Positions 24,411 to 49,174 of a DNA stretch of 64,000 nt are shown here, one piece after another. The stretch's first letter is position 1; every line of letters starts with the position of its first letter. The position numbers and the translations under genes are program-made. The DNA is from Syntrophorhabdaceae bacterium (GTDB taxonomy: Bacteria; Desulfobacterota; Syntrophorhabdia; Syntrophorhabdales; Syntrophorhabdaceae): positions 224,001-288,000 of the forward strand of contig CAXXUO010000009.1 in assembly GCA_963666485.2 (NCBI GenBank), written 5' to 3'. Under the pieces are notes generated by a model. The model searched no databases and was not told the DNA's origin. It saw only the letters and a program-made list of their open reading frames with translations.

Positions 24411-24428
24411 TTAAGGCACTCTCCTTGT

Positions 24429-27669: not shown

Positions 27670-27674
27670 TGTCC

Positions 27675-28290
27675 TTAGAGTGTCGCCGCCGATATGTTGA
27701 GGTTCGGCCTGCCAGTTTGCCATCCTTCCACCTTCCTGATGATTCGTGCAGGGTTGCCTGCAGCGAGCGTGTTTGCCGGGATATCCTTTGTCACAACCGA
27801 GCCCGCGGCCACAACGGCCCCCCTTCCCGATAGTGACGCCTTTGAGTATTATGGTCCTGCACCCGATCCAGGCCCCGCTACCGATAACGACCGGCTTTAC
27901 GTCCTCCGGTTCTCTCCCGGTAGAATGGTAATCGCGGTCCATGATGACGCAATCCCATGCTATGATCGTTCCGTCCCCTATATCAACGAGCCTCCCCGCA
28001 TGGATCTCTGTCCGGTCCCCGATGGAACAGTGTTTCCCGATCCTTATCGAAGCCTTCCCGCCGCCCGTGCCCTGACACGACAGCTTGACGCCGGGCCAGA
28101 GATCGGTCAATTCACCGACCGAAACCGTTCCATTTGTCACGAGGACCTTGAGCCTGCCCCGCACGGATATCAGGGCGGTCTTTTCGAAACGCAGGGAGTT
28201 CAGGTACCCCCATGCGAAACGCATGCTGTCCGCAATCAAAGTCCTGAATGGTCTTGTCTTCAATTTCTTGACCAGGCGGTGAGGGTCCAT
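27675..28290 (-). pseudogene. Hexapeptide-repeat O-acetyltransferase interrupted by a +1 G (or a sequencing error)
   Basis: IGKHCSIG...DRDYH...IGSGAWIG...GVTIGKG. The expected [28 protein letters not shown] tail lies in the shifted frame after G6 at 27818-27823; span 616 nt = 3n+1. Confidence 0.85.
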
Positions 28291-28291
28291 G

Positions 28292-29485: not shown

Positions 29486-29489
29486 CTTC

Positions 29490-30683
29490 TCACTTCGAGG
29501 CACAGAGCTTTCTCTTGAGCATGTTGCCTATATGCTCCTTCCACTGATAATAGAAAGGACGCACGTCCCTGCGGTCGAATATCGCGAAGTATTTTCGGCC
29601 TATGTACGGGCGCACATAATCCCACAGGGAGAGGGTTTCCAAACTGTGATTGAGGGCCGTGTGCAGGACGTCCTTGTATTCATGTATCCAGTAGACGTTT
29701 TCCCTGAACGAGTCGGCCCTGATCTTTTCGTTCCTGACGAGGTCCGCATATTGGATGTAGGGAAAATTGATACCGCAGGCCGTGCAGAGCCCTATCCAGA
29801 ATATGTACCTGGGGTTGATCTCGATGAGCTTGTAAACGCCTTCGCGGGGGTCGTACTTCCACTCTATCTCGGAGAACCCGTAGTAACCGAGGCCGGTGAG
29901 GAGTTTGCGGCTTTGCCCGTCGAGACCGGGGATCCTTTCGCTCTTCGCGATCCTTCCCTGACCGTATCGCGGCGGGTCCTGCCGCACCTTCCTCGATGTC
30001 ATAGAGGCGAGCATTTCTCCCGACTGGTCGATGTAAGATACATATTGAACCATCTGCCGGCTGTCGGGCCCGGGGATGATCTCGCATATCATGAGATTGA
30101 ACTCATCCGAGGTAAACTCGCCGGTAAGCTTCCTGTAGTTTCGTACGAGATCGTCGAAGGAATTCACCTCTACCATCTTGAAATCGAATTTCCTGAAAAA
30201 AAGGTGGCCCAGGCCGGGCTTTACCAAGCAGGGAAAGGTGATCTTTCCCTCAAGCGCCTCGAGTTCCCCGGGGGACCTCGGGGCAAAGATATTGGGAACG
30301 GCAATACCCAATCCCGACGCTGTGGCGTACAGGTTCTTCTTGTTGACGACCCGGTCTATGACGTCCCGGTCGGGTGTGGGCACCAGGTAATGCTGTTTCA
30401 GGACGTCCTTGTGCTGCGCAAGGAATTCGACGCCGTAATCCTTGGTAGGAATGATGAGGGTCCCCGACCACTCGCCGGCCTTTTCGAGGAGCAGATCGAG
30501 AAGCAGCCCTGGTTTCTCTATAAAATCCGGAATCTTGACGGAGTCAATGACATATTTCGAATGCCTGCCGATCTCCGCATGTTCTCTGTCATAGATGACA
30601 ATACTGTGGACACCGTGTCTGGCCAGTGCCTTGATGACCTGGTAGCCCAGTTCGGTTGCGTTGATCAGGATCACTTTATCCAT
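29490..30683 (-). CDS. ATP-grasp carboxylate-amine ligase (D-aspartate ligase-like)
   Basis: FPCLVKP, CEIIPGPD, KVRQDP, GFSEIEWKYDPREG.YKLIEINPR. Confidence 0.88.
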   Translation of the reverse strand: MDKVILINATELGYQVIKALARHGVHSIVIYDREHAEIGRHSKYVIDSVKIPDFIEKPGLLLDLLLEKAGEWSGTLIIPTKDYGVEFLAQHKDVLKQHYLVPTPDRDVIDRVVNKKNLYATASGLGIAVPNIFAPRSPGELEALEGKITFPCLVKPGLGHLFFRKFDFKMVEVNSFDDLVRNYRKLTGEFTSDEFNLMICEIIPGPDSRQMVQYVSYIDQSGEMLASMTSRKVRQDPPRYGQGRIAKSERIPGLDGQSRKLLTGLGYYGFSEIEWKYDPREGVYKLIEINPRYIFWIGLCTACGINFPYIQYADLVRNEKIRADSFRENVYWIHEYKDVLHTALNHSLETLSLWDYVRPYIGRKYFAIFDRRDVRPFYYQWKEHIGNMLKRKLCASK

Positions 30684-31756
30684 CGTCCGACGATCCCCGC
30701 CTGGCTGATAAATCTGGATGTTTTTTCGATGCTGGCCTTCTTGAAGAGGACGGGCCAGTAAATGGGATGTTTCAGGATGAACGGCAGTGTATACCGGGCA
30801 AGTATCTTTCTCCTTTCTGATTCATTCCATTCATAGATCGATTGCCTCACCTGATCATTCATGCGCTTCATCAAACCATCGAAAAAGAACTGGAACTCTC
30901 GCGGAAGCGCCGCGGGCAGCGTGACGGCCCGGTACACCGGCCATATATCCGCAATGCTGTAACCTGCGCTGTCAAAGATCGCCCTCACGCAGAGGCCGAT
31001 CTTGCATTCGGCACGCTGGAAAAGAACATTTTCCCTGCTGTCCTCGTAGCGCACGTCATAGGGCAGGCCCTGATACTGCTCCCGCGGCGTGAAGATAAAG
31101 TTCCCCAAGGAGTAAAATATATACTTGCCTCTATACTCCTCATACCCCTGGGGCACGTGAGGATGGTGGCCGATAATGAGATCGACACCCTGGTCGATGA
31201 GCCTTCTTGCCGCCTCCTGCTGGTCACTGTTGACGAAGACATTGTGATCGTCACCCCAATGGAGGAACATAATGAGGAAATCGCATTCCTTCTTGAGGGA
31301 ATCCACGTCAAGCCGGTCAAGGTCCTTGAAGAGATGGCCGCTGAACCTGGACTCGACCCAATTGACCGCCGCCATACCCAGGGCCACCCCGTGCCTGACC
31401 GTCCTGCAATACTGTGAGATCCCCTCGTAGTCGATGCCGAAACCTTGAATCCCGCTGTCATCAAGAACTTCCGTTGTCTCATCGAGGCCCGGCTCAAAGA
31501 GGTCGAAGATATGGTTGTTGTTGAGACCCACATGGGTGAAACCAAAGTCGTTAAGTATTCCTACGTTCTGCGCGTTCGACCAGAGCGGGATCTTCCTCAA
31601 GTCCATCACTTTCGGCGGGGCAAGGACAATGGGGCACTCCAGGTTGCCCACAACCAGGTCCGCCTGCCTTAACTTCGCCTTAAGGCTTGGATCGGGCGTC
31701 TCTTCTATCACGCTCGCCCCCGGCATTATGTCACCTGTGAAGATACAGTCGATCAT
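30671..31756 (-). CDS. CapA/PgsA-family metallophosphoesterase
   Basis: GDIM, NLECP, NNNHIFD, HWG, IGHHPHV, YSLGNF. Confidence 0.88.
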   Translation of the reverse strand: MIDCIFTGDIMPGASVIEETPDPSLKAKLRQADLVVGNLECPIVLAPPKVMDLRKIPLWSNAQNVGILNDFGFTHVGLNNNHIFDLFEPGLDETTEVLDDSGIQGFGIDYEGISQYCRTVRHGVALGMAAVNWVESRFSGHLFKDLDRLDVDSLKKECDFLIMFLHWGDDHNVFVNSDQQEAARRLIDQGVDLIIGHHPHVPQGYEEYRGKYIFYSLGNFIFTPREQYQGLPYDVRYEDSRENVLFQRAECKIGLCVRAIFDSAGYSIADIWPVYRAVTLPAALPREFQFFFDGLMKRMNDQVRQSIYEWNESERRKILARYTLPFILKHPIYWPVLFKKASIEKTSRFISQAGIVGRWIK

Positions 31757-31758
31757 GG

Positions 31759-32511
31759 TCACGCGAACCGTATGCCCGAGGCGCCCCGCGATAGACTCCC
31801 GGAAAGCTTCCCGAAAAGCCTCTTGTATAATTCGAAAGGACCGGCGTTCCTCTCGAGGGAGATGCTCCGGCACGTACTGGTCATGTACCTGAGGGTAAGA
31901 AAATATCCGACGGTCACACGCCCTACCTCCGAAAAGGCCGCCCTGTGAAGGATCGCCCGGCTCGTCCTGTTCCATGCAATCGCAGACGCCACTCCGTTTG
32001 TGAAACCCCTGGGATAAAGAGCGCGCGCACCCGTTATCAGGAGGTTCCTGAAGACGTTCCTCCCTCTGTATCTTCTCGCAACATATGCGTTATACGCGTA
32101 AACCTGCCGCCTTTTAAGCCTGATGGTTGACTCGATCTCCGTTATGTATTTCTCGCCGGCGGCAAACCACGTGTATCCCACTATGCTGCCCTTATCCTCG
32201 CAGACAAAACAATGGCCGCCGCTTCGCAACCTTTCGTACGCTTCTCGTGCGTTGAACACGGGCTGAAAAACGGTTTCTGCGGCCCTCTGTGTGGCCAGAA
32301 CGCCCTCAATACCCTGCCACTCCTCTGGCCGGAGTTCTCTAAAGACGAGACCATTCGCGGGTTCCAGGCGCGATGATGCAAGTCCATGCATGGAGTATTT
32401 ATACATGATGAGGGTCTTTCTCGAATAAATGCTGTGTAAAACCTTCGACCAGAGATCGTCCATATATCGACCGTACTCTCTTTTCAGCCTGGTTTCTGCC
32501 GTGGTGGTCAT
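31759..32511 (-). CDS. GNAT-like N-acyltransferase
   Basis: CFVCEDKGSIVGYTWF, YNAYVARRYRGRNV, WNRTS. Confidence 0.7.
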   Translation of the reverse strand: MTTTAETRLKREYGRYMDDLWSKVLHSIYSRKTLIMYKYSMHGLASSRLEPANGLVFRELRPEEWQGIEGVLATQRAAETVFQPVFNAREAYERLRSGGHCFVCEDKGSIVGYTWFAAGEKYITEIESTIRLKRRQVYAYNAYVARRYRGRNVFRNLLITGARALYPRGFTNGVASAIAWNRTSRAILHRAAFSEVGRVTVGYFLTLRYMTSTCRSISLERNAGPFELYKRLFGKLSGSLSRGASGIRFA

Positions 32512-33239
32512 TTCATCGTATCCCCGGGAAACACACGATGATCTCCGGGCATAAGCAGCCTGAGCCTGCCGAACATCTTCCGGTAAAATCCGAAGGTACC
32601 TGTTTCATTACGGAAGGCAATGTCCCTGCACGTATTTATGAGGTACCTGAAGGTAAGCAAATAACCGGTGGTCACAATCCCGGAAACCACGAAATTCAGC
32701 TTCCTGACGGCCTCTCTCGAGGCCTTATTCCAGTCCATGGTGGCGGTGATCTCCCGGGCGAAGCCCTGAGGAACAAGGTGCTTTCGGGCCGCGCTGAGAT
32801 TTCCGCCAAGTACGTTCCGATGCCTGTGGTCCTTCAACCTGTAGGAATTATAGAGATAGAGGTCCTTTTGCCCGAGGAGGATTGTCGACTCGATCTCGGG
32901 AATGTACTTGTCCTTTTTTGTGAACCAGGAATAGCCGATGAACTCTCCCTCGTCCTCGCAAACATAGCAGAGTTCACCCTTCTCAAGCCGTAGGGCGGCC
33001 TCCTGTATGTCGATAGGTTTGAATACGGGCTCGCAATCGCGCTGAACGTCTAACAGTTCCGACAGTTTGTCAAGGTCGGATGGCTCAAGCGCCCTGAAAA
33101 CAGGCCCGTCCTGCGGGGCTTGCCAGGGGTCCCGGCCGTTGTATGGATACTCGTAAAAAACCATTCTCGTCGTTGAAAAGAGATAACGAATTATCCTTTT
33201 CAGCATCCTCGGCTTGAGCATTTGTGCCTCGTCTGTCAT
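32508..33239 (-). CDS. GNAT-like N-acyltransferase, paralog of the neighbouring gene
   Basis: CYVCEDEGEFIGYSWF, KYIPEIESTI, YNSY...HRHRNV, WNKAS; ATGA overlap with the upstream gene. Confidence 0.68.
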   Translation of the reverse strand: MTDEAQMLKPRMLKRIIRYLFSTTRMVFYEYPYNGRDPWQAPQDGPVFRALEPSDLDKLSELLDVQRDCEPVFKPIDIQEAALRLEKGELCYVCEDEGEFIGYSWFTKKDKYIPEIESTILLGQKDLYLYNSYRLKDHRHRNVLGGNLSAARKHLVPQGFAREITATMDWNKASREAVRKLNFVVSGIVTTGYLLTFRYLINTCRDIAFRNETGTFGFYRKMFGRLRLLMPGDHRVFPGDTMK

Positions 33240-34360
33240 CTTTCGCCTCGTTGACCTGGAAATGTCAGGCCGTACTGTGCGAACAGGGCGCGGTTTTGAG
33301 CCGTCAGGAGGCCTCCGTTCGTTGCCTGGATCCCGGCTGTCCCCCATTCTATATTCCCTTCTATTATCACCGGGCCGTCCGGGGTAACAGCAAGGTCCCA
33401 TCCTATGGCCTTGAGCTCTCTGAAAGCTCTTTGCGCTTTTGCAACCGCGCTCTTCACCTCACTCCAGAACGGTACCGTAAAATTGTCAAGAGGCGTACTT
33501 GTGAGCGGGTGGTCCATGACCCTCACGATCGCCCGCCCTTTCATGAACCCGGGAGCTTTGAGCCTGCCTGTTTCCCTGTCGATCTTGACCACGATGCCGC
33601 CCGCCGAGAAATTATCGATCGGGACCTTTCCCGAACTCGTCCGCAGCATGGAGGCCAGGATCTTCACGTCGTCGTCCCGCGTAAGAAGCGTGATCACTCT
33701 GATACTGTTCAGGCAACAGGGATTGATGAGATCGAGCGCCGGATGCTGAGTGATGACCTCCTGCACGATAAACTCGCCTTCCGGCCCGTTTGAGGTGCCG
33801 ACGCCTGCAGGGGGAGATACGGGTTCGACACGAATTCCGGCGCCCTCTCTGACGGCGAAATATATTCCTTTGCCCTGCAAGCCGCGCAGCGGTTTCAGAA
33901 TGACCCTGTCCCGTCCTTCTCTCTCCATCACCTGCATGAGACTGCTTCCGTCTGCCTTGAGGGATCCCTGTGCATAGATGCCGTAGGCATTGGGAACAGG
34001 GATCCCGTGGAACCGGCAGAGACAGTGAAAGATATACTTGTCGTTCACGAGAGAGGAATAACTGTCGTTCCACAGGGCATCGTACAGCCTGGCCTTGAGG
34101 AGCGGGGCCACGGGTTCGTCCATGTATTCCCTGAACTCTGCCCGTTTCTTCTCATCGAGGCCGAAGAGAAAGTAATTGCGCGGCACGATCCCGAGGACAA
34201 AAAAGAGGTAGAGCCGATCTACGAATGCCGTAAACCGGGACTTCCCTGACGTGGGCCTGCCGTTTGGGGCATTCGGGACGATCTCCTTGAAAAGCTCCGG
34301 GAACTCGGCGTAGTGCGACAGGTGGTGATGGACCGATCTCAGTATTTGCAGGGTATTCAT
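33236..34360 (-). CDS. Sugar-transfer-associated ATP-grasp protein
   Basis: DKYIF, LKPLRGLQGKG, VQEVITQH, LNSIRVIT, DNFSAGG, HPLT, IGWDLAVT.DGPVIIEGN. Confidence 0.88.
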   Translation of the reverse strand: MNTLQILRSVHHHLSHYAEFPELFKEIVPNAPNGRPTSGKSRFTAFVDRLYLFFVLGIVPRNYFLFGLDEKKRAEFREYMDEPVAPLLKARLYDALWNDSYSSLVNDKYIFHCLCRFHGIPVPNAYGIYAQGSLKADGSSLMQVMEREGRDRVILKPLRGLQGKGIYFAVREGAGIRVEPVSPPAGVGTSNGPEGEFIVQEVITQHPALDLINPCCLNSIRVITLLTRDDDVKILASMLRTSSGKVPIDNFSAGGIVVKIDRETGRLKAPGFMKGRAIVRVMDHPLTSTPLDNFTVPFWSEVKSAVAKAQRAFRELKAIGWDLAVTPDGPVIIEGNIEWGTAGIQATNGGLLTAQNRALFAQYGLTFPGQRGER

Positions 34361-34366
34361 GGGTGC

Positions 34367-37300
34367 CTATCGAAGCGAGGGAGGCTTCAGGTTGAAATTG
34401 ATCACCTCGTGGATGTCCTGGTACGTGTTCAGGTGCAGGCGTATCGCATCGTCGCTCATCCCGCTGATGTAATCCTTGATATAGTCGAGCCCTGTATACA
34501 TGTCCGAATCGCTCGTCGTGCAGAACAGGACACCGCGATGGAAGTTCCCGGCAAAGTAGTTGCACGAATTGCACGAGGAATAGAACATGCGCGAGTACTT
34601 GAGCTCGCTTTCGGTGATCCCCGTGTTGCCGTACAGGATCGTCTTGCCGTAGGAACCCGAACTGTCGAAGAAGTGCGGTTTGTTATGGTACGCGTTGTCG
34701 GCGATACTCGTGTAGGCAGATTTGACGCTCTGGACATAACCGGTGTTCGTCATCGTGTCGGTGTTCGAAGACGATCGCACCGTAAGCGAGACTGTGTACG
34801 TCCCGGCAGTCCTGAACCTGTGGGCAGGGTTCTGTTCGGTGCTCGTCGTCCCGTCGCCAAAATCCCACAACCACGATGTAACGCTGCCCGAACTCATGTC
34901 CGTGAACTGGACCGATGTCCGCGTGGTGACGTTGCGGGCGTCGGCCGTGAACAATGCCCGCAGGGCGCCGGTCGAACCGACACGTATGACGCCCGTCTTT
35001 ACCTCCGTATCCTGGGCCCCTAAGCCGCTCGTGACAGTCAGGGCAACCGTATAGATGCCGGCCTGCGAATAGACATGCGCGGGGCTTCGCGACGTGCTCG
35101 TCTTACCGTCGCCGAAATCCCAGAACCAGCCGGTGATAATGTCACCTGTCGGGGAAGATATCTCGCTCACGTCTTTAAATGCCACGGTGAGGGGGGGCGA
35201 GCCGGTGACGACACTGGCGGAGAACTCTGCCTGCAGCCTGTTCGCGAGATCGCCGATGGAACTCAAGCGTATAGAATCGGCGACCACCCTTCCATCGGCC
35301 TTGTCGGTAAGAGAGACCTTGTAACTGCCGGGACTGAAGTAAAAGGTACCGAGCAGATATCCTGCTGTCTTGGCCCTCTGGTCCGCCTCGACCGTCGTCG
35401 TCCCGCCATCATGCTCGATCGTATAGCTGGCGTTTGAAGCGTTCGTGCTTGCCGACTGCCAGGTGGCGGTAACCTGATAGTAGCCGGGGTAGCGTACGAC
35501 GAGGGTCCACGTTGCCGTATTCGTGCCGGTGCCCGCGGCGTGGTACTGATAATTGTATGCGTTGTATTCCTTCACGTCATCCGCTTCCTTCCCAAGCGCC
35601 CAGGTCCCGGTAAAGTCGCAGCGGTTGTAATCGGGATCGTTGTTGACAATGAAGTACTCGGGATTCCGGCCGGGGCTTGGCGCGAGCCCGGACGGCGAGA
35701 ACCAGGCGGGGACCCCGGAGTCCGGGAAACGTTCGAGATAACTGCCATCGATGAGTTCGATCTTGTACAGGGTCGGATCTCCGGAGACTTTATATGTCAG
35801 ATAATAATTATAGGGCGGGACACCCTCCGCGAAAGTGTAGGGCATTATCCCGTTCGTTCCATTCTTGAATTTGGGAAGCCAGTTGGGATATGCCTGGCCG
35901 TACTGGACACCGTCTATCTTGACCGACACCATGGGGGTGGAGACGTGGGTGAAGCGGTCATCATCTATGTAACGAATGTCATCGATCTCCTGCACGTAGA
36001 CCTCGTCCCCCTGGGCGAATGAACCTCCGAGCCCGAAGTTTGAGTGACCGTTCCAGATGATATGCGCACCTTCCTGCCTGAGGGCGTTCATGAAGCCGTC
36101 CGGCGTGTTTACGAAGTGAAAGATGAACGTCTTTCCCAGGGACGTGTTGCGGTAGACCCAGGTATCATTGACCTGCGTTGCCCCCAGGTCTTTAAGGATT
36201 ATCTTCACGTTGGGCACAAAGACACCGTCCTTCGCATACCCGTCGCCGATGTAGATGTGTTCCACGCTTCCGCTTACCGCATGAACGTACTGCGCGGCCG
36301 TCTTCGTATTGGAGCCTGCCGTGTTGGAGACCGTAAGCGACACCGTATAATACCCGTCCGCGGAGTAGGTGTGTGTCGGGTTCTTTGCCGTGCTCGTCGT
36401 TCCGTCGCCGAAATCCCAGAGCCACGACGTCACGGTGCCGGTGCTGAGATCGGTAAACGTGACCGCAAGAGGGACGCTCCCCTCGACCGCGCTGGCACTA
36501 AAGTCTGCTGCGGGAGGCTCGGCCGCCACGGCCGCAAATCTGACCGCATCGGCACACGTACTCGTGGGAGCCGCCTGGGATGTTATTGTGATGTTGTATG
36601 TCGTCCCAGCGAGAAAACTGAATGTCCCCAGAGGATTCCATGTGCCCGCGTTTACAAGCTGGTTGATGGTGACTGTCTGCGAACCCCCGGCATGGTTGAT
36701 CACAACGGGTATGGCCGAACTTCGCGTCGACGTCGTGGTCCACCACATCGATACATTGTAGTTGCCCGTCTGGGACGGGGTGAACTTCCAGGTGAACGCG
36801 GCCCCGTCACGGCTCCACACCGAGCCCGTGCCATAATAACCGGAAGCGGCCGATGCCGCCCACGTGCCCGTGCGTGCCGTACGGGTATCCGTGTTGTCGA
36901 TGATGGTATCTGTGGGCGCGGCACCGACCACGAGGGACTCGGCTGCTGCAACGGACATAACACCTTCAGTGCTTCTGACCCTGAATGTGATCGTGTGTGT
37001 GCCGGCGCTCAATTTGGAGGTGGAAAAAGAGGCTTCCGTCCCGATGGCACCGTCAATTGAGGAATTCCACTCGTAGGCGGCGATAGAGGCCCCGCTGCCG
37101 TGACCGGTAAATGTGACCGCCTGTCCTGCCCAGGCGGGATTGGGCGTTATAGAATCGATCTGGGCGACCGGAACTTCGCTTGTCAGGGTGAACCTGACCG
37201 CATCGGCACACGTACTCGTGGGGCCTGCCTGGGAAACAATTGTTATGTTATAGGTGACCCCTGCGGCAAAGGCGAAAGTGCCGAGAGAATTCCACTGCCC

Positions 37301-38311
37301 CTCGTTCTGAAGCTGGTTTATCGTGACGGTTTGCAAGCCATTCGCATTATTGATCTGAACAGGTATCGAAGGGCTTCGCGACGACGTCGTGGTCCACCAC
37401 ATCGATACATTGTAGTTGCCCGTCTGGGACGGGGTGAACTTCCAGGTGAACGCGGCCCCGTCACGGCTCCATACCGAGCCCGTGCCATAATAACCGGAAG
37501 CGGCCGATGCCGCCCACGTGCCCGTGCGTGCCGTACGGGTATCCGTGTTGTCGATTATCACTTCTTCCGACGCGCCTCCCACGACAAGCGTCGTCGTGGC
37601 CCCGCCCGATGTCAGGCCGCTGTTGTCGGTTACGACGAATGTAATGATATGTGCACCGGTACTCAGGCTTGACGTTGAAAAGCCCGGTTCCGTACTCAAG
37701 GCACCATCAAGAGACGAGGTCCATTTGTAACCTGTTATTGTCCCGTCGCTGTCCATTCCGTGTCCGGTAAAAGTCACTGTTTGGCCGGGATTTGCCGGCG
37801 ACGGACTGATGGAGTCTATCGTTGCAACAGGAAGCGCAGCACTCGAGACATATTTGAACTGCACGGCGTCGGCGCAGGTGCTCAGCGTATCGCCGGCGGC
37901 CGCCGTGATCGTCACCGACCCGCTCCCATTGAAATAAAACGTTCCGAGGCTGTTCCACTGGCCGGAGTTCTTAAGCTGGTTGACAGTCAGGTTCTGGGTC
38001 CCGCCGGTGAAATTTACCGCCACCGGAACGCCGGAGGGCCTGCTCGAATACCCGGACCACCACATGAACACTTCATACATTCCCGCCTGCTGGCCGTTCA
38101 TTGAGAACGTGTAGGTCGCGCCGTTGCGCGACCACAGGCTTGAGGCGCCATAGGGGGTTGTTCCGCCGGAAAGCGACCATGAGCCTGTATAAGACGTCCC
38201 CGTGCCGCCGTTATCGACTATGACATCAGCCCGGAGCGGCCCCGCACGGAAAAGAGCAATCAGGAAAATCAGGAAAACGAACACACCGGCGAGGACGTGC
38301 TTCGACTTCAT
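34367..38311 (-). CDS. Large secreted protein (1314 aa) with golvesin/CBM-like and PKD repeats and an uncharacterised core
   Basis: Signal peptide; repeats IIDN...G.W...Y.V.MWW...NQ..N.G.WN.LGTF...CADAVRF; PKD WLWDFGDG...NP.H.Y...G.YTVSLTV. Confidence 0.9.
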   Translation of the reverse strand: MKSKHVLAGVFVFLIFLIALFRAGPLRADVIVDNGGTGTSYTGSWSLSGGTTPYGASSLWSRNGATYTFSMNGQQAGMYEVFMWWSGYSSRPSGVPVAVNFTGGTQNLTVNQLKNSGQWNSLGTFYFNGSGSVTITAAAGDTLSTCADAVQFKYVSSAALPVATIDSISPSPANPGQTVTFTGHGMDSDGTITGYKWTSSLDGALSTEPGFSTSSLSTGAHIITFVVTDNSGLTSGGATTTLVVGGASEEVIIDNTDTRTARTGTWAASAASGYYGTGSVWSRDGAAFTWKFTPSQTGNYNVSMWWTTTSSRSPSIPVQINNANGLQTVTINQLQNEGQWNSLGTFAFAAGVTYNITIVSQAGPTSTCADAVRFTLTSEVPVAQIDSITPNPAWAGQAVTFTGHGSGASIAAYEWNSSIDGAIGTEASFSTSKLSAGTHTITFRVRSTEGVMSVAAAESLVVGAAPTDTIIDNTDTRTARTGTWAASAASGYYGTGSVWSRDGAAFTWKFTPSQTGNYNVSMWWTTTSTRSSAIPVVINHAGGSQTVTINQLVNAGTWNPLGTFSFLAGTTYNITITSQAAPTSTCADAVRFAAVAAEPPAADFSASAVEGSVPLAVTFTDLSTGTVTSWLWDFGDGTTSTAKNPTHTYSADGYYTVSLTVSNTAGSNTKTAAQYVHAVSGSVEHIYIGDGYAKDGVFVPNVKIILKDLGATQVNDTWVYRNTSLGKTFIFHFVNTPDGFMNALRQEGAHIIWNGHSNFGLGGSFAQGDEVYVQEIDDIRYIDDDRFTHVSTPMVSVKIDGVQYGQAYPNWLPKFKNGTNGIMPYTFAEGVPPYNYYLTYKVSGDPTLYKIELIDGSYLERFPDSGVPAWFSPSGLAPSPGRNPEYFIVNNDPDYNRCDFTGTWALGKEADDVKEYNAYNYQYHAAGTGTNTATWTLVVRYPGYYQVTATWQSASTNASNASYTIEHDGGTTTVEADQRAKTAGYLLGTFYFSPGSYKVSLTDKADGRVVADSIRLSSIGDLANRLQAEFSASVVTGSPPLTVAFKDVSEISSPTGDIITGWFWDFGDGKTSTSRSPAHVYSQAGIYTVALTVTSGLGAQDTEVKTGVIRVGSTGALRALFTADARNVTTRTSVQFTDMSSGSVTSWLWDFGDGTTSTEQNPAHRFRTAGTYTVSLTVRSSSNTDTMTNTGYVQSVKSAYTSIADNAYHNKPHFFDSSGSYGKTILYGNTGITESELKYSRMFYSSCNSCNYFAGNFHRGVLFCTTSDSDMYTGLDYIKDYISGMSDDAIRLHLNTYQDIHEVINFNLKPPSLR
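36728..37555. repeat. Near-identical intragenic direct repeat of about 170 bp (36728-36901 and 37382-37555)
   Basis: Visual alignment shows one mismatch (cacac vs catac). Confidence 0.85.
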
Positions 38312-38345
38312 AGGCGCTCCTTTGGTCTGTGATGAAAAATGGCTG

Positions 38346-38389
38346 CGGGAGGCGGCCCGCTGCGTCTTTACCGGCAGCGGGCCCTCCCG
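38346..38389 (-). terminator. GC-rich hairpin between the two giant genes (weak terminator or mRNA stabiliser)
   Basis: cgggaggcggcccgctgc...gcagcgggccctcccg; short U-run a few nt downstream on the minus strand. Confidence 0.55.
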
Positions 38390-38413
38390 GATCAGGTCTA
38401 CGGGGTGACGACT

Positions 38414-41400
38414 CTAGCGCATTGAGGGAGGTTTGCGAGTAAAATCCAGTATGTGGTGTATGGGCTGTACTGAATTCACAACGGAAAGTATCTGGTCATC
38501 CGTATACCCCTTGAGGTAATACTCGAGATAATTGAGCGCGGTATATGAATCGCTGTCTCCTGTCGTGCAGTAGAAGATGCCCCTCTGGAATGTCCCTCCA
38601 TAGTATGAACAGGAATTGCATGATCCGTAGAACATGCGGGAGTATTTCATGTCCTCGTCCGGTATTTTCACCGGCCTGGCATCGAGTATGACCTTGCCGA
38701 ACGTGATCGGGCTTCCCGTTATGCGCGAATAGAAATGCGGTCTGTGATGGGCTGTGTTGTCCGCGTAAATGAGACCAATTATGTTATTGACAAAATCAGT
38801 CTCCGTTTCCGTACTGCTGCCTCCCGGCCCGGTCACGGTCAGGCTCACCGTGTATGTCCCGGGTACCGTATAGGTATGCGTGGGGTTTTGTTCCGTGCTC
38901 GTCGCGCCGTCGCCAAAATCCCAGAGCCAGTTCGTTATGCTCCCCGAACTCTGATCGGCAAACGTTACGACCGTTCTGTCGGAGCCCATGCGGCTTGAAG
39001 ACGTGAAATTCGCTCGCAAGGGCGCACTCTGGCCGACTGCTATGAGTCCCGTCTTGGTTTCCGTGTCCGTAGCGCCCGTTGAATCCGTGACGGTCAGGCT
39101 GACAGTGTATACCCCGGGGCTCGAATATGTATGAACGGGGTGTTGGGTCGTACTCGTCCCTCCATCCCCGAAATTCCAGCGCCACTGCGTTATACTTGCC
39201 GTGGTATCGGCCATGTTGTAATACCCGCTGTAGTCGGTGAATTGAACGGCAAGAGGAGAAGCGCCCGCAAGGACATCGGCGTCGAACTCTGCCTGGAAGA
39301 TCTTCTGAGGGTTATCGACAGCGCTTAAGACAACGGCATCCGCTATCACGCGTCCGTTTGCGTTGTCACTTAACCTGATGGTGTACACGCCTGGATTGAA
39401 ATAATAGACACCGAGCGTATTCACGAAGTTGGACACCCTCTGGTCCACCTCTACGACTGCCGAGCCGGCTGCATGGTTGACCGTATATTTGGCATTGCTT
39501 GCATTCGCTGCATTGGCCTTCCAGGAAGCGAGGGTGGCATAGAGGCCCGGATAGGTGACGACAAGCGTCCAGGTGGCCGTGTTTGTGCCTGTGCCGGCGG
39601 CATGATACTGGTAGTTGTATCCAAGATACCCGTCTGCTCCCATATATCCCCCGTTGGGGACCGATTCGAACGGCCAGGTACCTACAAAATCACACCTGTT
39701 GTAATCGGCGTCATTGTTGACGATAAAGTACTCGGGATTGAGCGCCGGGTCCGGCTTCGCACCGGTGGTAGAGAACCATGCCGGTGTCGCGGAGTCGGGA
39801 AACCGCTGGATAGTTTTCCCGTCCTCAAGTTCTATCTTGTAGATGGTCGGATCTCCCGAGACCTTGTATGTCAGGTAATAGTTGTACGGCGGCAGACCCT
39901 GCGAGAAAGTGTACGGCATAATACCGCTCGTCCCGTCCTTGTATACGGGCAGCCAGTTGGGATACGCCTGGCCATACTGAACCCCGTCGATCTTGACCGA
40001 GACCATGTCTGATGAAAAATTCGTAAAACGGTCGTCGTTGATGTAACGGATGGCCGTGATCTCCTGTGTGTAGACCTCGTCGCCGGTTGCGAACGTCGCG
40101 CCAAGCCCGAAATTCGAGTGACCGTTAAAAATGACATGGGCACCTTCGGTCTTGATCGCGGCGGTCATTGCGGCAGCGTCCTTCACCGTGTGCAGGTAGA
40201 AGGTTTTGCCTGTGGTTGCATTCGTGTATGTCCAGACGTCACCCGATACATTTCCTCCCATGCCCTTAAGCAGCGTTTTGGCATTGGGAATAAAGAGCGC
40301 ATCGCTGGCGTACCCGTCGCAGAGATAGATATGTTCACCGGTCGTGTCGACGTGAACGTAATCTGTCCGCGTCTTTGTGTTTTGTCCCGCGTCATTGGAC
40401 ACGGTGAGAGATACCGTGTAGATCCCGGGCGATGTATATGTGTGTGATGGGTTCTGATCCGTGCTTGTCCCGCCGTCGCCGAAATTCCACGCCCACGCTT
40501 TTATAACACCGAGGCTCTGGTCCGTGAATTGAATGGTAATCGGTTTCGTGCCCCACGTGACGGCGGCTGAAAAATCAGCGGTCGGAGCGCTCAAGACAGC
40601 GGGGGAGAACTTGACCGCGTCTGCGCACGTGCTTGTGGGGTTTGCCTGGGACGTAATGGTAACATTATACGTCGTCCCGGCAATGAACTCATACGTGCCG
40701 AGACTGTTCCACCTGCCGCCATTCTGAAGCTGATTTATCGTTGCAGTCTGGGTTCCGCCGGAATGTGCGATGGATACCGGAATTGCAGAGCTTCGCGTCG
40801 AAGTCGTGGTCCACCACATGAATACTTCGTAAAACCCTGTTGCCGCCGGCGTGAATCTCCAGGTAAACGTCGCCCCGTCGCGGCTCCATAGCGAGTTTGT
40901 CCCGTAATACCCGGAAGCGGCGGACGTTGACCATGATCCCGTACGCGATGTCCGGGTGTCCGTGTTGTCGATAATGGCCTCGGACGGCATCACGTTCCCG
41001 ATAGTGAGGGACGACGTTACCGCGGCAGACCAGGCGTCGCCGTTATCCATAACACTGAACGTTATTGTGTGGGTGCCCGCGCTCAGTGCGGTGGACGAAA
41101 AAGATGCTGTAGTACCGATTATGCCGTCTATAGATGACGACCACTGATAGGCAGCGATGCTCCCGTCTGCATCCGTACCGTGGCCCGTGAATGTCACGGT
41201 CTGACCCGTGACGGCCGGGTTGGGTGTGATGGAATCTATGGCTGCCGTTGGCGGCGTGTTGGGGCCCTGCTCGACAACAAGGGATGACGTCACCGGTGTC
41301 GACCAGAGACCCAGGTTGTCCTTGACCCTGAACGATATTGTGTGGGTGCCCGCGCTCAACGTGGATATCGCGAACGTGGCCGCAGTTCCTATGGCCCCAT

Positions 41401-42940
41401 CCCGCGATGATGTCCATTCATATGCGGCGATCGAACCATCGGGATCCGTACCGTGGCCCGTGAATGTCACGTTCTGGCCCGTGACGGCCGGGTTTGGCGT
41501 GATGGAGTCTATGACTGCCTGAGGGGCCTGATTGGCCCCCTGCTCGACGACAAGGGATGACGTCACCGGTGTCGACCAGAGACCCAGGTTGTCCTTGACC
41601 CTGAACGATATTGTGTGGGTGCCCGCGCTCAATGTCGATATTGTGAACGTGACGGCAGTTCCTATGGTCCCGTCGATCGACGATGTCCATTCGTAAGCAG
41701 CGATCGAACCATCGGGATCCGTACCGTGGCCCGTGAATGTCACGTTCTGGCCCGTGACGGCCGGGTTTGGCGTGATGGAGTCTATGACTGCCTGAGGGGA
41801 CTGATTGGTCGATACCAGGGTAAACTTTACCGCGTCGGCGCAGGTGCTTATCGTATCGCCGTTTGCCGCGGTAATGGTCACGGAACCCGCACCGTTGAAA
41901 TAGAATGTCCCGAGACTGTTCCACTGCCCCGAATTCTGTTTCTGATTGACCGTCGTAGTGCTCGTTCCCCCCGTGTAATTGATCGCGACAGGGGCGCTGG
42001 AGGGCCGGCTGGAATACCCGGACCACCACATGAACACCTCATATGAGCCGGCAGGTTGGCCGTTCATTGCAAACGTGTACGTTGCACCGTTTCGCGACCA
42101 GAGGCTTGTCGAGCCATACGGGCTGGTGCCCCCGGACGCAGCCCAGGACCCGGTATACGATGTCCCGGTTTGACCGTTGTCGATGATAACCTCTACGGAC
42201 GGTGTCCCGACGACAAGCTGCATTGTCGCCGGGGGAGACCACATATCGGAGTTGTCTTTGACCCTGAAAGAGATAGTGTGTGTTCCGGAGCTCAGTGCCG
42301 CTGTCGAAAATGTGTCCGTGGTGCCGATCGTGCCGTTGATGGATGAGGTCCATTCGTACGCGGTCACGGTCCCGTCGGAGTCCGTGCCATGCCCGGCAAA
42401 TGTGACGTTCTCACCGACATCCGCGGGCGACGGCGTGATGGAATCTATGGCTGCCTGAGGGGCCTGATTGGTCGATACCAGGGTAAACTTCACCGCGTCC
42501 GCGCACGTGCTGATCGTGTCGCCGTTCGGTGCGGTGATGGTCACGGAGCCCGTGCCGTTGAAGTAGAATGTCCCGAGGCTGTTCCACTTTCCCGCATTCT
42601 GTTTCTGGTTGACCGTCGTATTGCTCGTCCCCCCCGTGTAATTGATCGCGACAGGGGCGCTGGAGGGCCGGCTGGAATACCCGGACCACCACATGAACAC
42701 CTCATACGTGCCGGCTGGCTGGCCGCTCATTGCAAACGTGTACGTTGCACCGTTTCTCGACCAGAGGCTTGTCGAGCCATACGGGCTGGTGCCCCCGGAC
42801 AACGCCCAAGAGCCCGTGTAACTCGTTCCGGAACCCCCATTGTCAATTATGACGTCGGCCGCTGAGACCGGTGCCGCAATGAACAGTGTAAAGAGAAAAA
42901 AGATAAACAACAGACCGTACTTCTTCGACACATTGATCAT
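38414..42940 (-). CDS. Large secreted protein (1508 aa), paralog of 34367-38311
   Basis: GAGGTG RBS; signal peptide ending VSA; same golvesin-like/PKD repeats and the same core (GHSNFGLG, DGVQYGQAYPNWLP, YSRMFY.SCNSC). Confidence 0.9.
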   Translation of the reverse strand: MINVSKKYGLLFIFFLFTLFIAAPVSAADVIIDNGGSGTSYTGSWALSGGTSPYGSTSLWSRNGATYTFAMSGQPAGTYEVFMWWSGYSSRPSSAPVAINYTGGTSNTTVNQKQNAGKWNSLGTFYFNGTGSVTITAPNGDTISTCADAVKFTLVSTNQAPQAAIDSITPSPADVGENVTFAGHGTDSDGTVTAYEWTSSINGTIGTTDTFSTAALSSGTHTISFRVKDNSDMWSPPATMQLVVGTPSVEVIIDNGQTGTSYTGSWAASGGTSPYGSTSLWSRNGATYTFAMNGQPAGSYEVFMWWSGYSSRPSSAPVAINYTGGTSTTTVNQKQNSGQWNSLGTFYFNGAGSVTITAANGDTISTCADAVKFTLVSTNQSPQAVIDSITPNPAVTGQNVTFTGHGTDPDGSIAAYEWTSSIDGTIGTAVTFTISTLSAGTHTISFRVKDNLGLWSTPVTSSLVVEQGANQAPQAVIDSITPNPAVTGQNVTFTGHGTDPDGSIAAYEWTSSRDGAIGTAATFAISTLSAGTHTISFRVKDNLGLWSTPVTSSLVVEQGPNTPPTAAIDSITPNPAVTGQTVTFTGHGTDADGSIAAYQWSSSIDGIIGTTASFSSTALSAGTHTITFSVMDNGDAWSAAVTSSLTIGNVMPSEAIIDNTDTRTSRTGSWSTSAASGYYGTNSLWSRDGATFTWRFTPAATGFYEVFMWWTTTSTRSSAIPVSIAHSGGTQTATINQLQNGGRWNSLGTYEFIAGTTYNVTITSQANPTSTCADAVKFSPAVLSAPTADFSAAVTWGTKPITIQFTDQSLGVIKAWAWNFGDGGTSTDQNPSHTYTSPGIYTVSLTVSNDAGQNTKTRTDYVHVDTTGEHIYLCDGYASDALFIPNAKTLLKGMGGNVSGDVWTYTNATTGKTFYLHTVKDAAAMTAAIKTEGAHVIFNGHSNFGLGATFATGDEVYTQEITAIRYINDDRFTNFSSDMVSVKIDGVQYGQAYPNWLPVYKDGTSGIMPYTFSQGLPPYNYYLTYKVSGDPTIYKIELEDGKTIQRFPDSATPAWFSTTGAKPDPALNPEYFIVNNDADYNRCDFVGTWPFESVPNGGYMGADGYLGYNYQYHAAGTGTNTATWTLVVTYPGLYATLASWKANAANASNAKYTVNHAAGSAVVEVDQRVSNFVNTLGVYYFNPGVYTIRLSDNANGRVIADAVVLSAVDNPQKIFQAEFDADVLAGASPLAVQFTDYSGYYNMADTTASITQWRWNFGDGGTSTTQHPVHTYSSPGVYTVSLTVTDSTGATDTETKTGLIAVGQSAPLRANFTSSSRMGSDRTVVTFADQSSGSITNWLWDFGDGATSTEQNPTHTYTVPGTYTVSLTVTGPGGSSTETETDFVNNIIGLIYADNTAHHRPHFYSRITGSPITFGKVILDARPVKIPDEDMKYSRMFYGSCNSCSYYGGTFQRGIFYCTTGDSDSYTALNYLEYYLKGYTDDQILSVVNSVQPIHHILDFTRKPPSMR
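41277..42797. repeat. Several near-identical intragenic repeats (domain duplications)
   Basis: Approximately 41277-41359 matches 41550-41632; 41427-41525 matches 41700-41798; 41947-42137 matches 42607-42797 (bounds approximate). Confidence 0.8.
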
Positions 42941-43060
42941 GGATTCACCTCTTTTTTGACGCGATCAGTCAGGTAACCTTTATCTGCCCGAACGGGCATG
43001 TGCAGTACATATCTTTCAGGCAGCAACTGCCTTTCCCAACCGTGTTCAACTCCCTATTTT

Positions 43061-44362
43061 TCACGAAAAATACCGATTTTCGTACTGGTGTAATGCCCGC
43101 GACATTATCGACCTGTGCTTGCCGGTCGATCCTCTGTCGAGGGCCTCAACTTCGATAACATCGACATGAATGGAACCGTTGACGACCCTTTTGATCTTCG
43201 CATCTATCTCATCCTTTAACTTCCGGAAATCGACCGCCCCCTCGGGCACGATGCTTATCATGAGATCTTTATTATCTTTCTGAACAACCCTGAACTCTTT
43301 TACCTCCGGTATGGTTTCTATCTGAAAGACTATCGTCTGGGGGTCCATAAGCTTGCCGGAGGGCATGACAAGAAAATCGTCGCACCTTCCAACAATAGCC
43401 TTGAGCACAGGGAAATGCCTTCCGCACGGACATTTTTCTGCTGACAGGGTCCCGACATCGCCTATCTCGTAACGGATATAGGGCATTGAATAATTGTTGA
43501 GGGAGGTCACGATGATCCTGCCGGGCTCTCCCGCGGGAAGCCTCCTGCCGTCCTGGTCAACTATCTCGAGGACGACATTGTCAGCCGCGACATGAAGGTT
43601 CTGCATCCTGCATTCGAAGGCGATGGCCGAGAACTCGAGGCACGAGTAATCGTCGTACACCTTGCATTGAAATATATCCTCGATGTATGCCCGTGCATAT
43701 GCGGTCAGCAGTTCGGAATTGGACATGAGAAACTTCAGGTTCAAGGCCCTGCCACGCTCGCTCCCCAGGGTTTTTGCCAGGAGGTAAAGCACCGACGGGT
43801 AGGCGTTGATGATCCGGGGCCTTATCTTGTCTATCTCCGATACCTGGCGCTCCGGTCCCCATTCGAGGGGAATAAAGGAGCGCCTGAACAGATTGACCTT
43901 CTGCAATGCAATACGGGTGACCGGGGGAGAGTAACGAACGTAGGCCATCTTGTCCCAGGGTTTGTAACCGATGTCGATGAGCTGCCTGAACTGCATGAGA
44001 CGGTAGAGCGCGGCCACATCATTATCAAGGACCACTTCGAGTTTCTTGCCCGACGACCCGGACGTCATCCGTGGTGAGCACCGGGCAGGATCGACCCCGC
44101 ACATGAGGATACCATCCGGGTAATTCGCAAGGACAATATCCTTGGTGAGGATGGGAACTCCCTCGAGATCGTCAAAAGACGAGATGCTGTCCGGGCGTAT
44201 TCCCGCCGAGTCGAAGAGCCTGCGGTAATACGGGACCCGCGCAAAGGCATGGGCGATGAGCTTTCTCAACGCCCTCTCCTGCATGGCGGTAACTTGATCG
44301 GATGCCTTCCACTGGTTGCGGTACACTGTCGGCCACTGCAAGAGGTGGTAGAGATAGCGCAT
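43061..44362 (-). CDS. Phenylacetate-CoA ligase family / CapK-like adenylate-forming enzyme
   Basis: VPYYRRLF, TSGSSG, AYPS, YSCLEF, MPYIRYEIGDVG, CPCGR, GRCDD. Confidence 0.9.
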   Translation of the reverse strand: MRYLYHLLQWPTVYRNQWKASDQVTAMQERALRKLIAHAFARVPYYRRLFDSAGIRPDSISSFDDLEGVPILTKDIVLANYPDGILMCGVDPARCSPRMTSGSSGKKLEVVLDNDVAALYRLMQFRQLIDIGYKPWDKMAYVRYSPPVTRIALQKVNLFRRSFIPLEWGPERQVSEIDKIRPRIINAYPSVLYLLAKTLGSERGRALNLKFLMSNSELLTAYARAYIEDIFQCKVYDDYSCLEFSAIAFECRMQNLHVAADNVVLEIVDQDGRRLPAGEPGRIIVTSLNNYSMPYIRYEIGDVGTLSAEKCPCGRHFPVLKAIVGRCDDFLVMPSGKLMDPQTIVFQIETIPEVKEFRVVQKDNKDLMISIVPEGAVDFRKLKDEIDAKIKRVVNGSIHVDVIEVEALDRGSTGKHRSIMSRALHQYENRYFS

Positions 44363-44366
44363 CCCT

Positions 44367-45098
44367 TCAAACCTTCCTGCAGATCGCCGAGAACCTGAAA
44401 TCCACCACTCCAAGACAACCCTTGATTACCTTCTTGAGTTCGCCCGACCGGCAGTATTTCCTCTTCTGGACCCTGTAATCTTCCGCCTGGGACCATGTTA
44501 CCCTGAACCCGCTCTTATCAAGCAACGACAGGACCGGGGACCGGGAGAAATTGAAAGGATGCCCCCTGTCTATCTCCATGCATTCCATGAGGTCCCTGAC
44601 GGCGGCCCCGAACCTGGTGTATATGTTGAGGCTCAAGAACATGACGCCTCCCGCCTCGAGGCTCCTGTGTATGCCGGAGAGGACGCCGCCGGGGTCCTTC
44701 ATGTGGTCGAGCACGTTGTCGAGAATGACGAGCGAAAATGTCCTCTCGAGGGAAAGGACGTCCTCACCCCTGCCGGTATGGCGCCTGACCGCCTCGTCCC
44801 TGACGCTCACAAAGTCAGCCTGAGAAGCGTAGTAGTCCTCGAGCGGGTCAAGGGCATAGCGTTCATCGGCATCGATATAGTTGACAAGGCCGACAGGCCC
44901 CGGCCCTATTTCAAGGACACTGACCGGGTCGTGTCCGTTGAGGAGCGGCCTGACCTGCATCCAGAGTCGACGGGCCCTGTCCTCGTACCACGCGAACTGC
45001 GGTCGCTCTCCCGCCTGTCCCGCTACCTGCCGCGACCAGAAACTCCTCTCGTATACCTGCGCCTTTTCCCATCTCATATCAGAAATGCTGCGCTGCAT
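44367..45098 (-). CDS. Class I SAM-dependent methyltransferase
   Basis: VLEIGPGP, LDPL, NVLDHMKDP. Confidence 0.85.
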   Translation of the reverse strand: MQRSISDMRWEKAQVYERSFWSRQVAGQAGERPQFAWYEDRARRLWMQVRPLLNGHDPVSVLEIGPGPVGLVNYIDADERYALDPLEDYYASQADFVSVRDEAVRRHTGRGEDVLSLERTFSLVILDNVLDHMKDPGGVLSGIHRSLEAGGVMFLSLNIYTRFGAAVRDLMECMEIDRGHPFNFSRSPVLSLLDKSGFRVTWSQAEDYRVQKRKYCRSGELKKVIKGCLGVVDFRFSAICRKV

Positions 45099-45109
45099 GT
45101 CTCCCTCTC

Positions 45110-46345
45110 TTACGCGCCTTCAACAGGCTGACCGGTTTCGGCGGACTGTTCGTACAAATACCGTATGGAAGCTGCGATGCCCAGCAGGAGATAGAGATTG
45201 ACGGAGTGCCCGTGGCTGAGCAGCAAGCCCCCGACCCAGAACCCGTAAAAGGACAATTCCACGAAGAAGGCAAGGCCGGACAGAGGGTTGCCCCGGTCCC
45301 TGCGTATTCTTCTCAGATGGACGATCGTGAAAATATTGAGGGCGAGGAAAACGATCAGGCCCGGAATGCCGGTTTCGACGGCGACCTGCAGGACAGAGGA
45401 ATGCGAGGTCAGCCATTTCTGCGTACCGCCTTCACCGGCACGAAACTGGCCGAGGGCTATTGTCGAACATCCTGCTCCCGCGCCCAGGACGGGATGTTCG
45501 GCAATGATCGACAGGTTCTGCTTCCAGATATTGATCCGACCGTTCGGATCGGTCAGGTTATAGTCCTGGCCGATGTTTTGAAACCGTCCTTCGACAGAGG
45601 AAAAGAAGTTGAGGAAAATAAATGCCAGCACGATGACAACAGCTATCTTCGCCCCTGACCGGACCCTGGGCGCACTTCTCATGAAAAAGGCAGCGATAAC
45701 GACGATCAGCGCCAGCACCCCTCCCCTGGACCGGCTCATCATGATCCCCGCCGCGGCAATACAGGCGGCAATGATTGCGAGGAGCCTCGCTTTCGCGCCG
45801 TGTCCGGCAAGCAGCACGTAAAGGCATACGGGGATGAAGGCGGCAAATACCATGGCTATGTCGTTCGGGTCATACATTGCGCTCGCATCAGCCCGGAAGC
45901 CCTGATATGCGACTGCTTCCACGATATAAAGAGAAGCCGAGAAAAGCACGCTGAGGACTATCACCGCCGCGGTTATATGAAACCTCCTCATAGACCGCAA
46001 CTGGATCATACAGACAAGGAAGTAGGCAATGGTTGCGGGCATGGTGGTGGCAAGAAACTTGAATGCCACGCCCCTGTGGACCGCAAACGGCATCCCCGCC
46101 AGCATGATGAGATACAAAAGAAGGACCAGGCGCACCTCGGGACGCCTGAACATCCCGCCCGGGACCTCGACCCTTTCAAAAAACATGACGATCAGGGTGA
46201 GAATACAGATCGACAGCACCGGCCTGAGTGCGGAAAGAGGGATCAGGTAATCCTGGGGCCTCGAAATGATGATAAACGTCCATATCAGGAAACAGATGAA
46301 GGACGGGCCGAGCCGTTCGGCCGGTCTATATGATTGCGTATCCAT
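45110..46345 (-). CDS. O-antigen ligase / Wzy-like polymerase
   Basis: Many TM helices; DPNDIA, SRSRGG, GRINIW, HPVLGAG, HSSVLQVAVETGIPG. Confidence 0.85.
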   Translation of the reverse strand: MDTQSYRPAERLGPSFICFLIWTFIIISRPQDYLIPLSALRPVLSICILTLIVMFFERVEVPGGMFRRPEVRLVLLLYLIMLAGMPFAVHRGVAFKFLATTMPATIAYFLVCMIQLRSMRRFHITAAVIVLSVLFSASLYIVEAVAYQGFRADASAMYDPNDIAMVFAAFIPVCLYVLLAGHGAKARLLAIIAACIAAAGIMMSRSRGGVLALIVVIAAFFMRSAPRVRSGAKIAVVIVLAFIFLNFFSSVEGRFQNIGQDYNLTDPNGRINIWKQNLSIIAEHPVLGAGAGCSTIALGQFRAGEGGTQKWLTSHSSVLQVAVETGIPGLIVFLALNIFTIVHLRRIRRDRGNPLSGLAFFVELSFYGFWVGGLLLSHGHSVNLYLLLGIAASIRYLYEQSAETGQPVEGA

Positions 46346-46371
46346 ATACAGATCTCCTTCCCAATCCCGTC

Positions 46372-47958
46372 TCAATCAGTTGAAGGCGTGGTTTTTTCAG
46401 AGCGTGAACGAGCAGAAACCGCTATCGTCTGGACAACCCCGGTCACTGATCGCACCGCTGATGTGACATCGTTCCATCTTTCGGTCCGTTCCTGTCGTGA
46501 AAGGCATATTTTCCATGAGCAGCAGGAATAGCAGATAAGGCTCACTGCCAGGACCACGATGAATTCTATCCAGCTGTCTATTTTGACTATTAGCGAACCA
46601 ACGTAAAGAAGCAGACCGAAAACCGTTGCCGGCGCCAGGGGAAGGAGGACACCTTTCGCGAAGAACCGGGCAAGAGACAATTTGAGCTGCCTGCACGCAT
46701 ACCAGGGTATAAATACCAGGTTCGCGCACACCATAGGTATAAGCATACCTATTGCAACGCCTGTTATTCCGTAACGTTTCACGAGAAATACGCTGATGGC
46801 GAGGTTCGCGGCGGCCTCAGCGACGGCAATATACGCCAGACTGCCATGCTTCGCAATTCCCTGCAGGGTCTGGGTCGATGCGTACTGTGTGACGTTGGCG
46901 GTTACAGCGATCGTCAGAATGATCAGTATGTGGTATCCGGCGGCGGCATACCGGGAGCCGACCCAGAGGCCCATGAATATGTCCCCGATAACCACGTAGG
47001 CAGCCGCTATGGGGAGTACCACCATCATGGAATATTTCGTCCCGTCGACCAGCACCCTCTTTACGGTCACCTCCCTGCCCTGGGCATTGAGATGGCTCAC
47101 GGCGGGCTGAAACACACCGGTCGACATGATCACAACGCGCAACTCGTCGACAAGGCGGAGCGGGATAGCGTAGATCGTGACAAAGGCAGCTGCAAGATAA
47201 TATCCGATGACCAGGTTGCCGATCGAGAAAATGAACTGTGTCGCGAGATGGTAAACGAAGAGAAGAATGCTGTACCGGCCCACACGTGCCAGCGCGTCAC
47301 GGCTGATGAGCGTGGCTTTGAGCCTGAGCCGCTGGTTGCCGCTGAACACATACGCGGCACGTATCGCTCCGGCGGCCAGCGTCGAGAACACGTGCGTGAC
47401 GGCGATAGCCACAAGCCTGTAACCCATTAAAACGAGCACCACTATGACAACGGTGCGTACGAAGAGGATCGCAAGTGATATCCCGGCAACGTGATCGTAA
47501 CGCTGCATCCCCCTCATGAATCCCGTAAAGAACCCGAAAGGAAGGGACAGACCGATCTGCAGGCCGATAATAGCCGTCACCCAGCGGGCTGACGTGAGCT
47601 CTTCCGCAGGTATCTTGAAATAGTGGACAAAATAAAGGGCCAACACGATGGCAATAAGGAATACGGCGCATCCGGCGGCCACATACACGTAAAAGGCACT
47701 GCTGCATATCCGGTTGAGCTCTTCGTTATCGCCTTTTGCCTTGAACTCGGCGACATATTTTACCACTGAGCCGCTGACCCCGAAATCAAAAAGCCCCAGG
47801 AACCCTGTGAAGCTCATGATAAGGACCCAGATACCATACTGGGTGTCCCCGAGATGCCTTATCAGGAAAGGCATCATCATGAACTGGACGATCGTGCCCA
47901 GGGCAAAAGCCCCCCAATTTGAAAGGATATTCCGCAAGATCTGGACCGACATACCCAT
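46372..47958 (-). CDS. wzx: Wzx-type oligosaccharide flippase
   Basis: PFLIRHLGDTQYGIW...LFDFG; polytopic MOP-family pattern. Confidence 0.88.
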   Translation of the reverse strand: MGMSVQILRNILSNWGAFALGTIVQFMMMPFLIRHLGDTQYGIWVLIMSFTGFLGLFDFGVSGSVVKYVAEFKAKGDNEELNRICSSAFYVYVAAGCAVFLIAIVLALYFVHYFKIPAEELTSARWVTAIIGLQIGLSLPFGFFTGFMRGMQRYDHVAGISLAILFVRTVVIVVLVLMGYRLVAIAVTHVFSTLAAGAIRAAYVFSGNQRLRLKATLISRDALARVGRYSILLFVYHLATQFIFSIGNLVIGYYLAAAFVTIYAIPLRLVDELRVVIMSTGVFQPAVSHLNAQGREVTVKRVLVDGTKYSMMVVLPIAAAYVVIGDIFMGLWVGSRYAAAGYHILIILTIAVTANVTQYASTQTLQGIAKHGSLAYIAVAEAAANLAISVFLVKRYGITGVAIGMLIPMVCANLVFIPWYACRQLKLSLARFFAKGVLLPLAPATVFGLLLYVGSLIVKIDSWIEFIVVLAVSLICYSCCSWKICLSRQERTERWNDVTSAVRSVTGVVQTIAVSARSRSEKTTPSTD

Positions 47959-47959
47959 C

Positions 47960-49099: not shown

Positions 49100-49107
49100 A
49101 ATGAAGA

Positions 49108-49170
49108 GGGGTTATGGGTGATTGGTGATGAAGACATTTTCCCATTACCAATCACCTATTACCCATTACC
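49108..49170. repeat. Short inverted heptamer-repeat element inside the EPS operon
   Basis: gggttatgggtgattggtgatg ... cccattaccaatcacctattacccattacc. Confidence 0.7.
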
Positions 49171-49174
49171 TCCT

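Follow-up and report, generated by a model that had tools for sequence, protein, structure and literature searches.

An unnamed family with a predicted caspase-type (clan CD) fold, in which a removable multi-domain cassette separates the predicted catalytic residues, is represented by two neighbouring genes, P0001 and P0002, on the minus strand of the window (the whole stretch of 64,000 nucleotides that was analysed). Clan CD itself is already known. In predicted models the family has the fold features that define the clan, yet it belongs to none of the named families tested.

Domain organization of the gene pair

P0001 (1314 aa; 34367..38311, minus strand) starts with a Sec-type signal peptide, read from the sequence as residues 1–28 with last letters PLRA (38228..38311, minus), and continues with three CBM35/golvesin-like and three PKD repeats, after which comes the split domain. 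The first half of the predicted core (about residues 684–760; 36032..36262, minus; boundaries approximate) contains strands b1–b3, with His756 (codon 36044-36046, minus) right after b3. It is followed by a family-specific subdomain of about residues 761–890 with the motifs QAYPNW, PPYNYY and ERFPDS (35642..36031, minus), an inserted CBM35-like module, Pfam Golvesin_C, at about 891–1020 (35252..35641, minus), and two inserted PKD domains at about 1021–1200 (34712..35251, minus). The second half of the core (about 1201–1314; 34370..34711, minus) holds His1213, a second conserved His, then b4 with Cys1247 (codon 34571-34573, minus), b5, two helices and b6.

P0002 (1508 aa; 38414..42940, minus) has a signal peptide, three CBM35-like and five PKD-type repeats and then the same split domain: a core first half with His941 (40106..40336; codon 40118-40120, both minus), the family subdomain (39716-40105, minus), an inserted CBM35-like module (39311-39715, minus), two inserted PKD domains (38771-39310, minus) and a core second half with Cys1441 (38417..38770; codon 38618-38620, both minus). 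Its core structure is taken from the 66% identity to P0001 in the central block (136/207 positions); identity is 55% in the inserted golvesin-like domain, 52% in the two inserted PKD domains and 49% in the C-terminal block. In both sequences a hydrophobic stretch resembling a signal peptide can be read at the N-terminus and KPPS[LM]R at the very end; P0001 has neither a membrane anchor nor a PEP-CTERM tail at its C-terminus, and P0002 has no anchor either. The open reading frames, the GHSNFG and SCNSC motifs and the His and Cys codons described in an earlier note were all recovered exactly on the minus strand. That note had also expected annotation as PKD-domain proteins, and indeed Pfam saw just Golvesin_C, four times per protein, and repeats of PKD type, while NCBIfam gave no model above cut-off for P0001.

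The CBM35-like module has the beta-sandwich fold of CBM35 and of the xanthan lyase CBM. Xanthan lyase carries its CBM at the C-terminus, whereas here such a domain is repeated N-terminally and also inserted inside the peptidase core. P0001 and P0002 are the only two copies of the family in the window's genome. Contigs X1 and X3, from two runs of one sample, matched the window genes with zero letter differences and zero indels, an agreement that is not independent because the sample is possibly the window's own source; a third run yielded no such contig. In a scan for promoters and terminators, neither signal was more frequent than expected by chance (6 vs. 7.1 and 4 vs. 8.9).

Conservation of the predicted catalytic residues

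A word-index search with query residues 680–900 returned 81 homologues of 722–2300 aa, and a HMMER profile built on the core alone, with the repeat modules left out, returned 419 representatives at E ≤ 0.001 among 1.84 billion, the best 150 of which were examined and pooled with the word-index homologues. The His was present in 81/81 and the Cys in 74/75 of the word-index homologues, and in 111/112 and 125/128, respectively, of the HMMER representatives covering the column among the best 150 of 419. In the pooled set (word-index homologues plus the best 150 of 419) this amounts to 192/193 for His and 199/203 for Cys over covered columns, so that the two residues, whose conservation had been set as a test, are near-invariant among the matches listed. 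Glu replaces the His in P0119, and Arg stands in the catalytic Cys column in P0025; the other exceptions are P0180, P0204 and a stretch of P0131 that had been mis-assigned. An Asn follows two residues past the His in 191 members of the pooled set, and the second His is found in 191/202 of the matches listed.

Among the same matches, the residue before the Cys is S, G, A or T in 199/203, which fits the clan CD motif of a small residue followed by Cys. The residue before the His is Gly in 185/193, and the residue after it is S in 127, A in 62 and G in 4 of 193. Ser or Ala in 189/193 departs from the His-Gly motif attributed to clan CD in the available part of a review (PMC12445089), which allows Gly on either side of the His. 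The earlier note had named a structural disulfide within CNSC as a possible refutation. We rejected this reading because the second Cys is variable, occurring in only 35/203 of the pooled set (best 150 of 419 plus word-index homologues), while the His and the first Cys are near-invariant.

Fold prediction and relation to known peptidases

Structures were predicted for natural contiguous proteins in place of a joined-block construct. The models show an alpha/beta core with a mostly parallel central sheet (b1–b4 plus helices), and they place the His and then the Cys at the C-terminal ends of the neighbouring strands b3 and b4 (in model numbering, His76 after strand 70–74 and Cys249 after strand 243–247), the arrangement given for clan CD in the available part of PMC4357240. 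The covariation register pairs I751 with M1242. Predicted models, conservation and contiguous forms together support the proposal that the two blocks form one caspase-type His/Cys domain with modules looped out; the fold assignment is almost certain, and the predicted His/Cys site is very probably catalytic. The stretch of about 140 aa described earlier as unknown is indeed conserved, but it is not a loose insert: in the models it folds with the core as the family-specific subdomain, and it is retained in contiguous forms and shortened yet present in the smallest members.

Sequence libraries did not place the family. Neither three contiguous cores, searched up to E 10, nor 13 short members had a Pfam family, NCBIfam returned none for four cores, and no Pfam or NCBIfam model for C11, C13, C14, C25, C50, C80 or DUF6345 matched the cores. 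PDB sequence searches gave nothing below E 0.098, Foldseek against the PDB gave weak matches to GTPases and nucleosidases and nothing else (best E 0.0087), and a language-model atlas search with the core gave nothing at or above 0.9. The caspase-like DUF6345 (PF19872) appeared in the language-model search at rank 7 with a score of 0.86, as a lead only; membership found no support, with no Pfam match up to E 10 and PF19872 empty in the genome and 100 relatives.

Among the closest known systems are the CHAT/separase-type peptidases, represented by SAVED-CHAT (8tl0), separases (5fc2, 5u1t, 9hvy) and DdvA (8rot). They show no profile similarity to the present family, which has GH[SA]N instead of HG, is exported with CBM and PKD repeats, and has a His–Cys spacing of 126–1078 rather than tens of residues. 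HHalign against the CHAT alignment gave probabilities of 0.04 and 0.17%. CHAT (PF12770) membership likewise found no support: there was no profile match, and the eight PF12770 places in the genome avoid the P0001 and P0002 genes. These eight CHAT-domain matches lie outside the window, and at least one occurs in 17/19 other genomes of the genus. The gingipains (C25), the clostripain family (C11), and legumain/AEP and GPI transamidase (C13) have no sequence match to the family. The available part of PMC4357240 gives a His–Cys spacing of 46 in PmC11 and 42 in caspase-7 and describes no whole domains between the two residues, whereas such domains are present in the window family. Full-text literature searches outside the subscription journals found no link of C25, C11 or C13 to exopolysaccharide clusters and no description of the present family, which a large domain survey may nevertheless mention.

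Gain and loss of the cassette

The His and the Cys are 491 residues apart in P0001 and 500 apart in P0002. Among the matches listed, 169 proteins have both residues, and their spacing rises stepwise from 126 to 1078. Spacing is below 160 in 12 of these 169, which are short proteins, mostly with a lipoprotein-like N-terminus and with no Pfam domain. The blocks are contiguous in the 14 at 160–200, so that the homologues with contiguous blocks that the earlier note had asked for do exist. Another 22 fall at 201–350, where the two inspected, P0005 and P0072, have a CBM only; 110 have the window arrangement (351–520) and 11 are larger. Contiguous genes were seen directly in DNA at three loci (L025, L060, L064). 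One of P0006 and P0026 is a contiguous form.

In a FastTree tree of 173 cores, cassette presence switches 11 times; the tree is arbitrarily rooted, and support for its deep branches is weak. Three contiguous forms sit within the 14-tip clade that holds P0001 (support 1.0), and the cassette would thus have been lost cleanly in close relatives. By these sequence comparisons, the cassette of one CBM35-like and two PKD domains appears to have been gained or lost repeatedly between the catalytic residues.

Genomic context and distribution

The gene pair is enclosed by, and co-oriented with, a Wzy-dependent exopolysaccharide gene cluster of the XrtA/PEP-CTERM type (22375..59364, minus). The cluster encodes an export protein, chain-length regulator, ATPase, priming transferase, deacetylase, FemAB-like protein, glycosyltransferases (GTs), flippase, O-antigen ligase-like protein, ATP-grasp ligases and GNATs; TIGR03019 and TIGR03013 scored above cut-off and TIGR03006, 03015, 03007, 03027 and 03097 below. 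A gap of 7 bases separates the pair from the ATP-grasp gene downstream of it, and more ATP-grasp genes occur nearby together with FemAB-like and GNAT genes. A CapA/PGA_cap-family metallophosphoesterase-like gene (30671-31975, minus) lies among the ATP-grasp and GNAT genes, which suggests that the polymer is decorated with peptides. Genes for type II secretion (secretin, ATPase, F, G, J, K and M-like; 6423-17206, minus) form a further cluster in the window, a candidate export route.

The search of the window's genome, which is 99% complete, for an exosortase (PF09721) gave no match, owing to either a loss or an assembly gap, although XrtA/PEP-CTERM-type polysaccharide genes are present at 51638-59364. 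This absence had suggested the family as an exosortase replacement, a candidate ruled out by the exosortase in 7/10 other family-bearing genomes of the genus; a strong match occurs in 1/9 family-lacking genomes. Since most family-bearing relatives possess one, the family accompanies the exosortase and does not replace it.

The family was found in 11/100 relatives and in 10/19 within the genus. Its closest named relatives are Syntrophorhabdus and other deltaproteobacterial records, with 73–82% identity in the central block. A species-genome scan gave 42 loci, in Syntrophorhabdus, Desulfobacterales, Phycisphaerae, Nitrospirae, Verrucomicrobiota and others, and 30/42 had a surface-polysaccharide-family gene, a count by clustering and Pfam on cluster representatives that leaves out most singletons and includes non-independent kin. 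One locus (L033) has three family copies, each broken by frameshifts or stops, possibly through assembly errors.

A secreted HEAT-like protein (about 230 aa, motif PLRxCDxAYNQLV) is the next gene in 10/42 loci, directly downstream at L055–L057 and L060–L066, and its domain is fused C-terminally in 24/207 proteins bearing the C-block (L048, L050, P0068–P0071, P0147, P0198, P0210 and others). It has no Pfam or NCBIfam match, was not found in the window's genome, and is a candidate regulator or adaptor.

Proposed function and alternatives

Our preferred reading, at a probability of roughly 55%, is a cysteine peptidase that is exported, stays attached to the exopolysaccharide of its own cell and cuts coat or matrix proteins, perhaps itself. 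The exopolysaccharide-bound role is suggested by the position of the genes inside the polysaccharide cluster, and the substrate is likewise assigned from context. The protein would be exported by Sec, possibly followed by the type II system encoded in the window. The central block would supply b1–b3, with the His after b3, and the C-terminal block b4–b6, with the Cys after b4. Loop L3, about 40 residues from His to Cys in caspase-7, would here be the family subdomain of about 130 residues, with the removable cassette of one CBM35-like and two PKD domains plugged into its end. The CBM35-like repeats would attach to the polysaccharide that the surrounding cluster produces, with the PKD domains as spacers and the inserted CBM keeping the active site against the polymer. 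His756 would activate Cys1247, and coat or matrix proteins, possibly along with the enzyme's own chain, would be cleaved at a specific peptide bond.

With the same fold and dyad, the protein might instead be a sortase-like transpeptidase that cuts a surface protein, or itself, and passes the acyl-enzyme to an amine on amino-acid-decorated exopolysaccharide. This is doubtful, given that the exosortase is retained in most family-bearing relatives, is a near upstream neighbour of the family in L036, L037 and L040, and that family forms without a CBM exist. Alternatively, the enzyme might be an amidase or acyltransferase whose targets are peptide or amide side groups on the polysaccharide, with proteins left untouched, which would suit its setting amid genes for polymer modification. 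At L060:13895-17848 a polysaccharide deacetylase is borne on the same golvesin/Ig scaffold, and two family members carry extra hydrolase domains, SGNH in P0042 and M14 carboxypeptidase in P0074. The His-Ser/Ala motif and the second conserved His (191/202 of the matches listed) are also unlike clan CD endopeptidases. We nonetheless consider it improbable, as stand-alone lipoprotein-like members lack a sugar-binding module and clan CD members are site-specific endopeptidases in the available part of PMC12445089.

A catalytically dead, structural domain in a matrix adhesin, with His and Cys binding metal or forming a disulfide, is very improbable. In its favour, the His-Gly motif is not retained, and the structural matches include Raptor and c-FLIP, clan CD folds without activity. 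Yet His and Cys persist across members just 20–30% identical, the would-be disulfide partner is variable, and the short members consist of little beyond this domain.

With 419 clusters at 50% identity, the unnamed family adds to clan CD several hundred members that sequence libraries and Foldseek miss. In the predicted models the caspase fold accommodates about 85 to about 1000 extra residues between its catalytic residues, whole folded domains included, and the natural contiguous forms of 300 residues make the chemistry directly testable. Through the family, an enzyme with the caspase fold becomes connected with the exopolysaccharide clusters of bacteria from anaerobic digesters and sediments, in which the fixing of proteins to the matrix and their release are poorly known. 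Should its members, against our expectation, be coat-building transpeptidases that covalently join proteins to amino-acid-decorated exopolysaccharide, they would constitute a third route of protein attachment to surface glycans, in anaerobic syntrophs and Planctomycetes.
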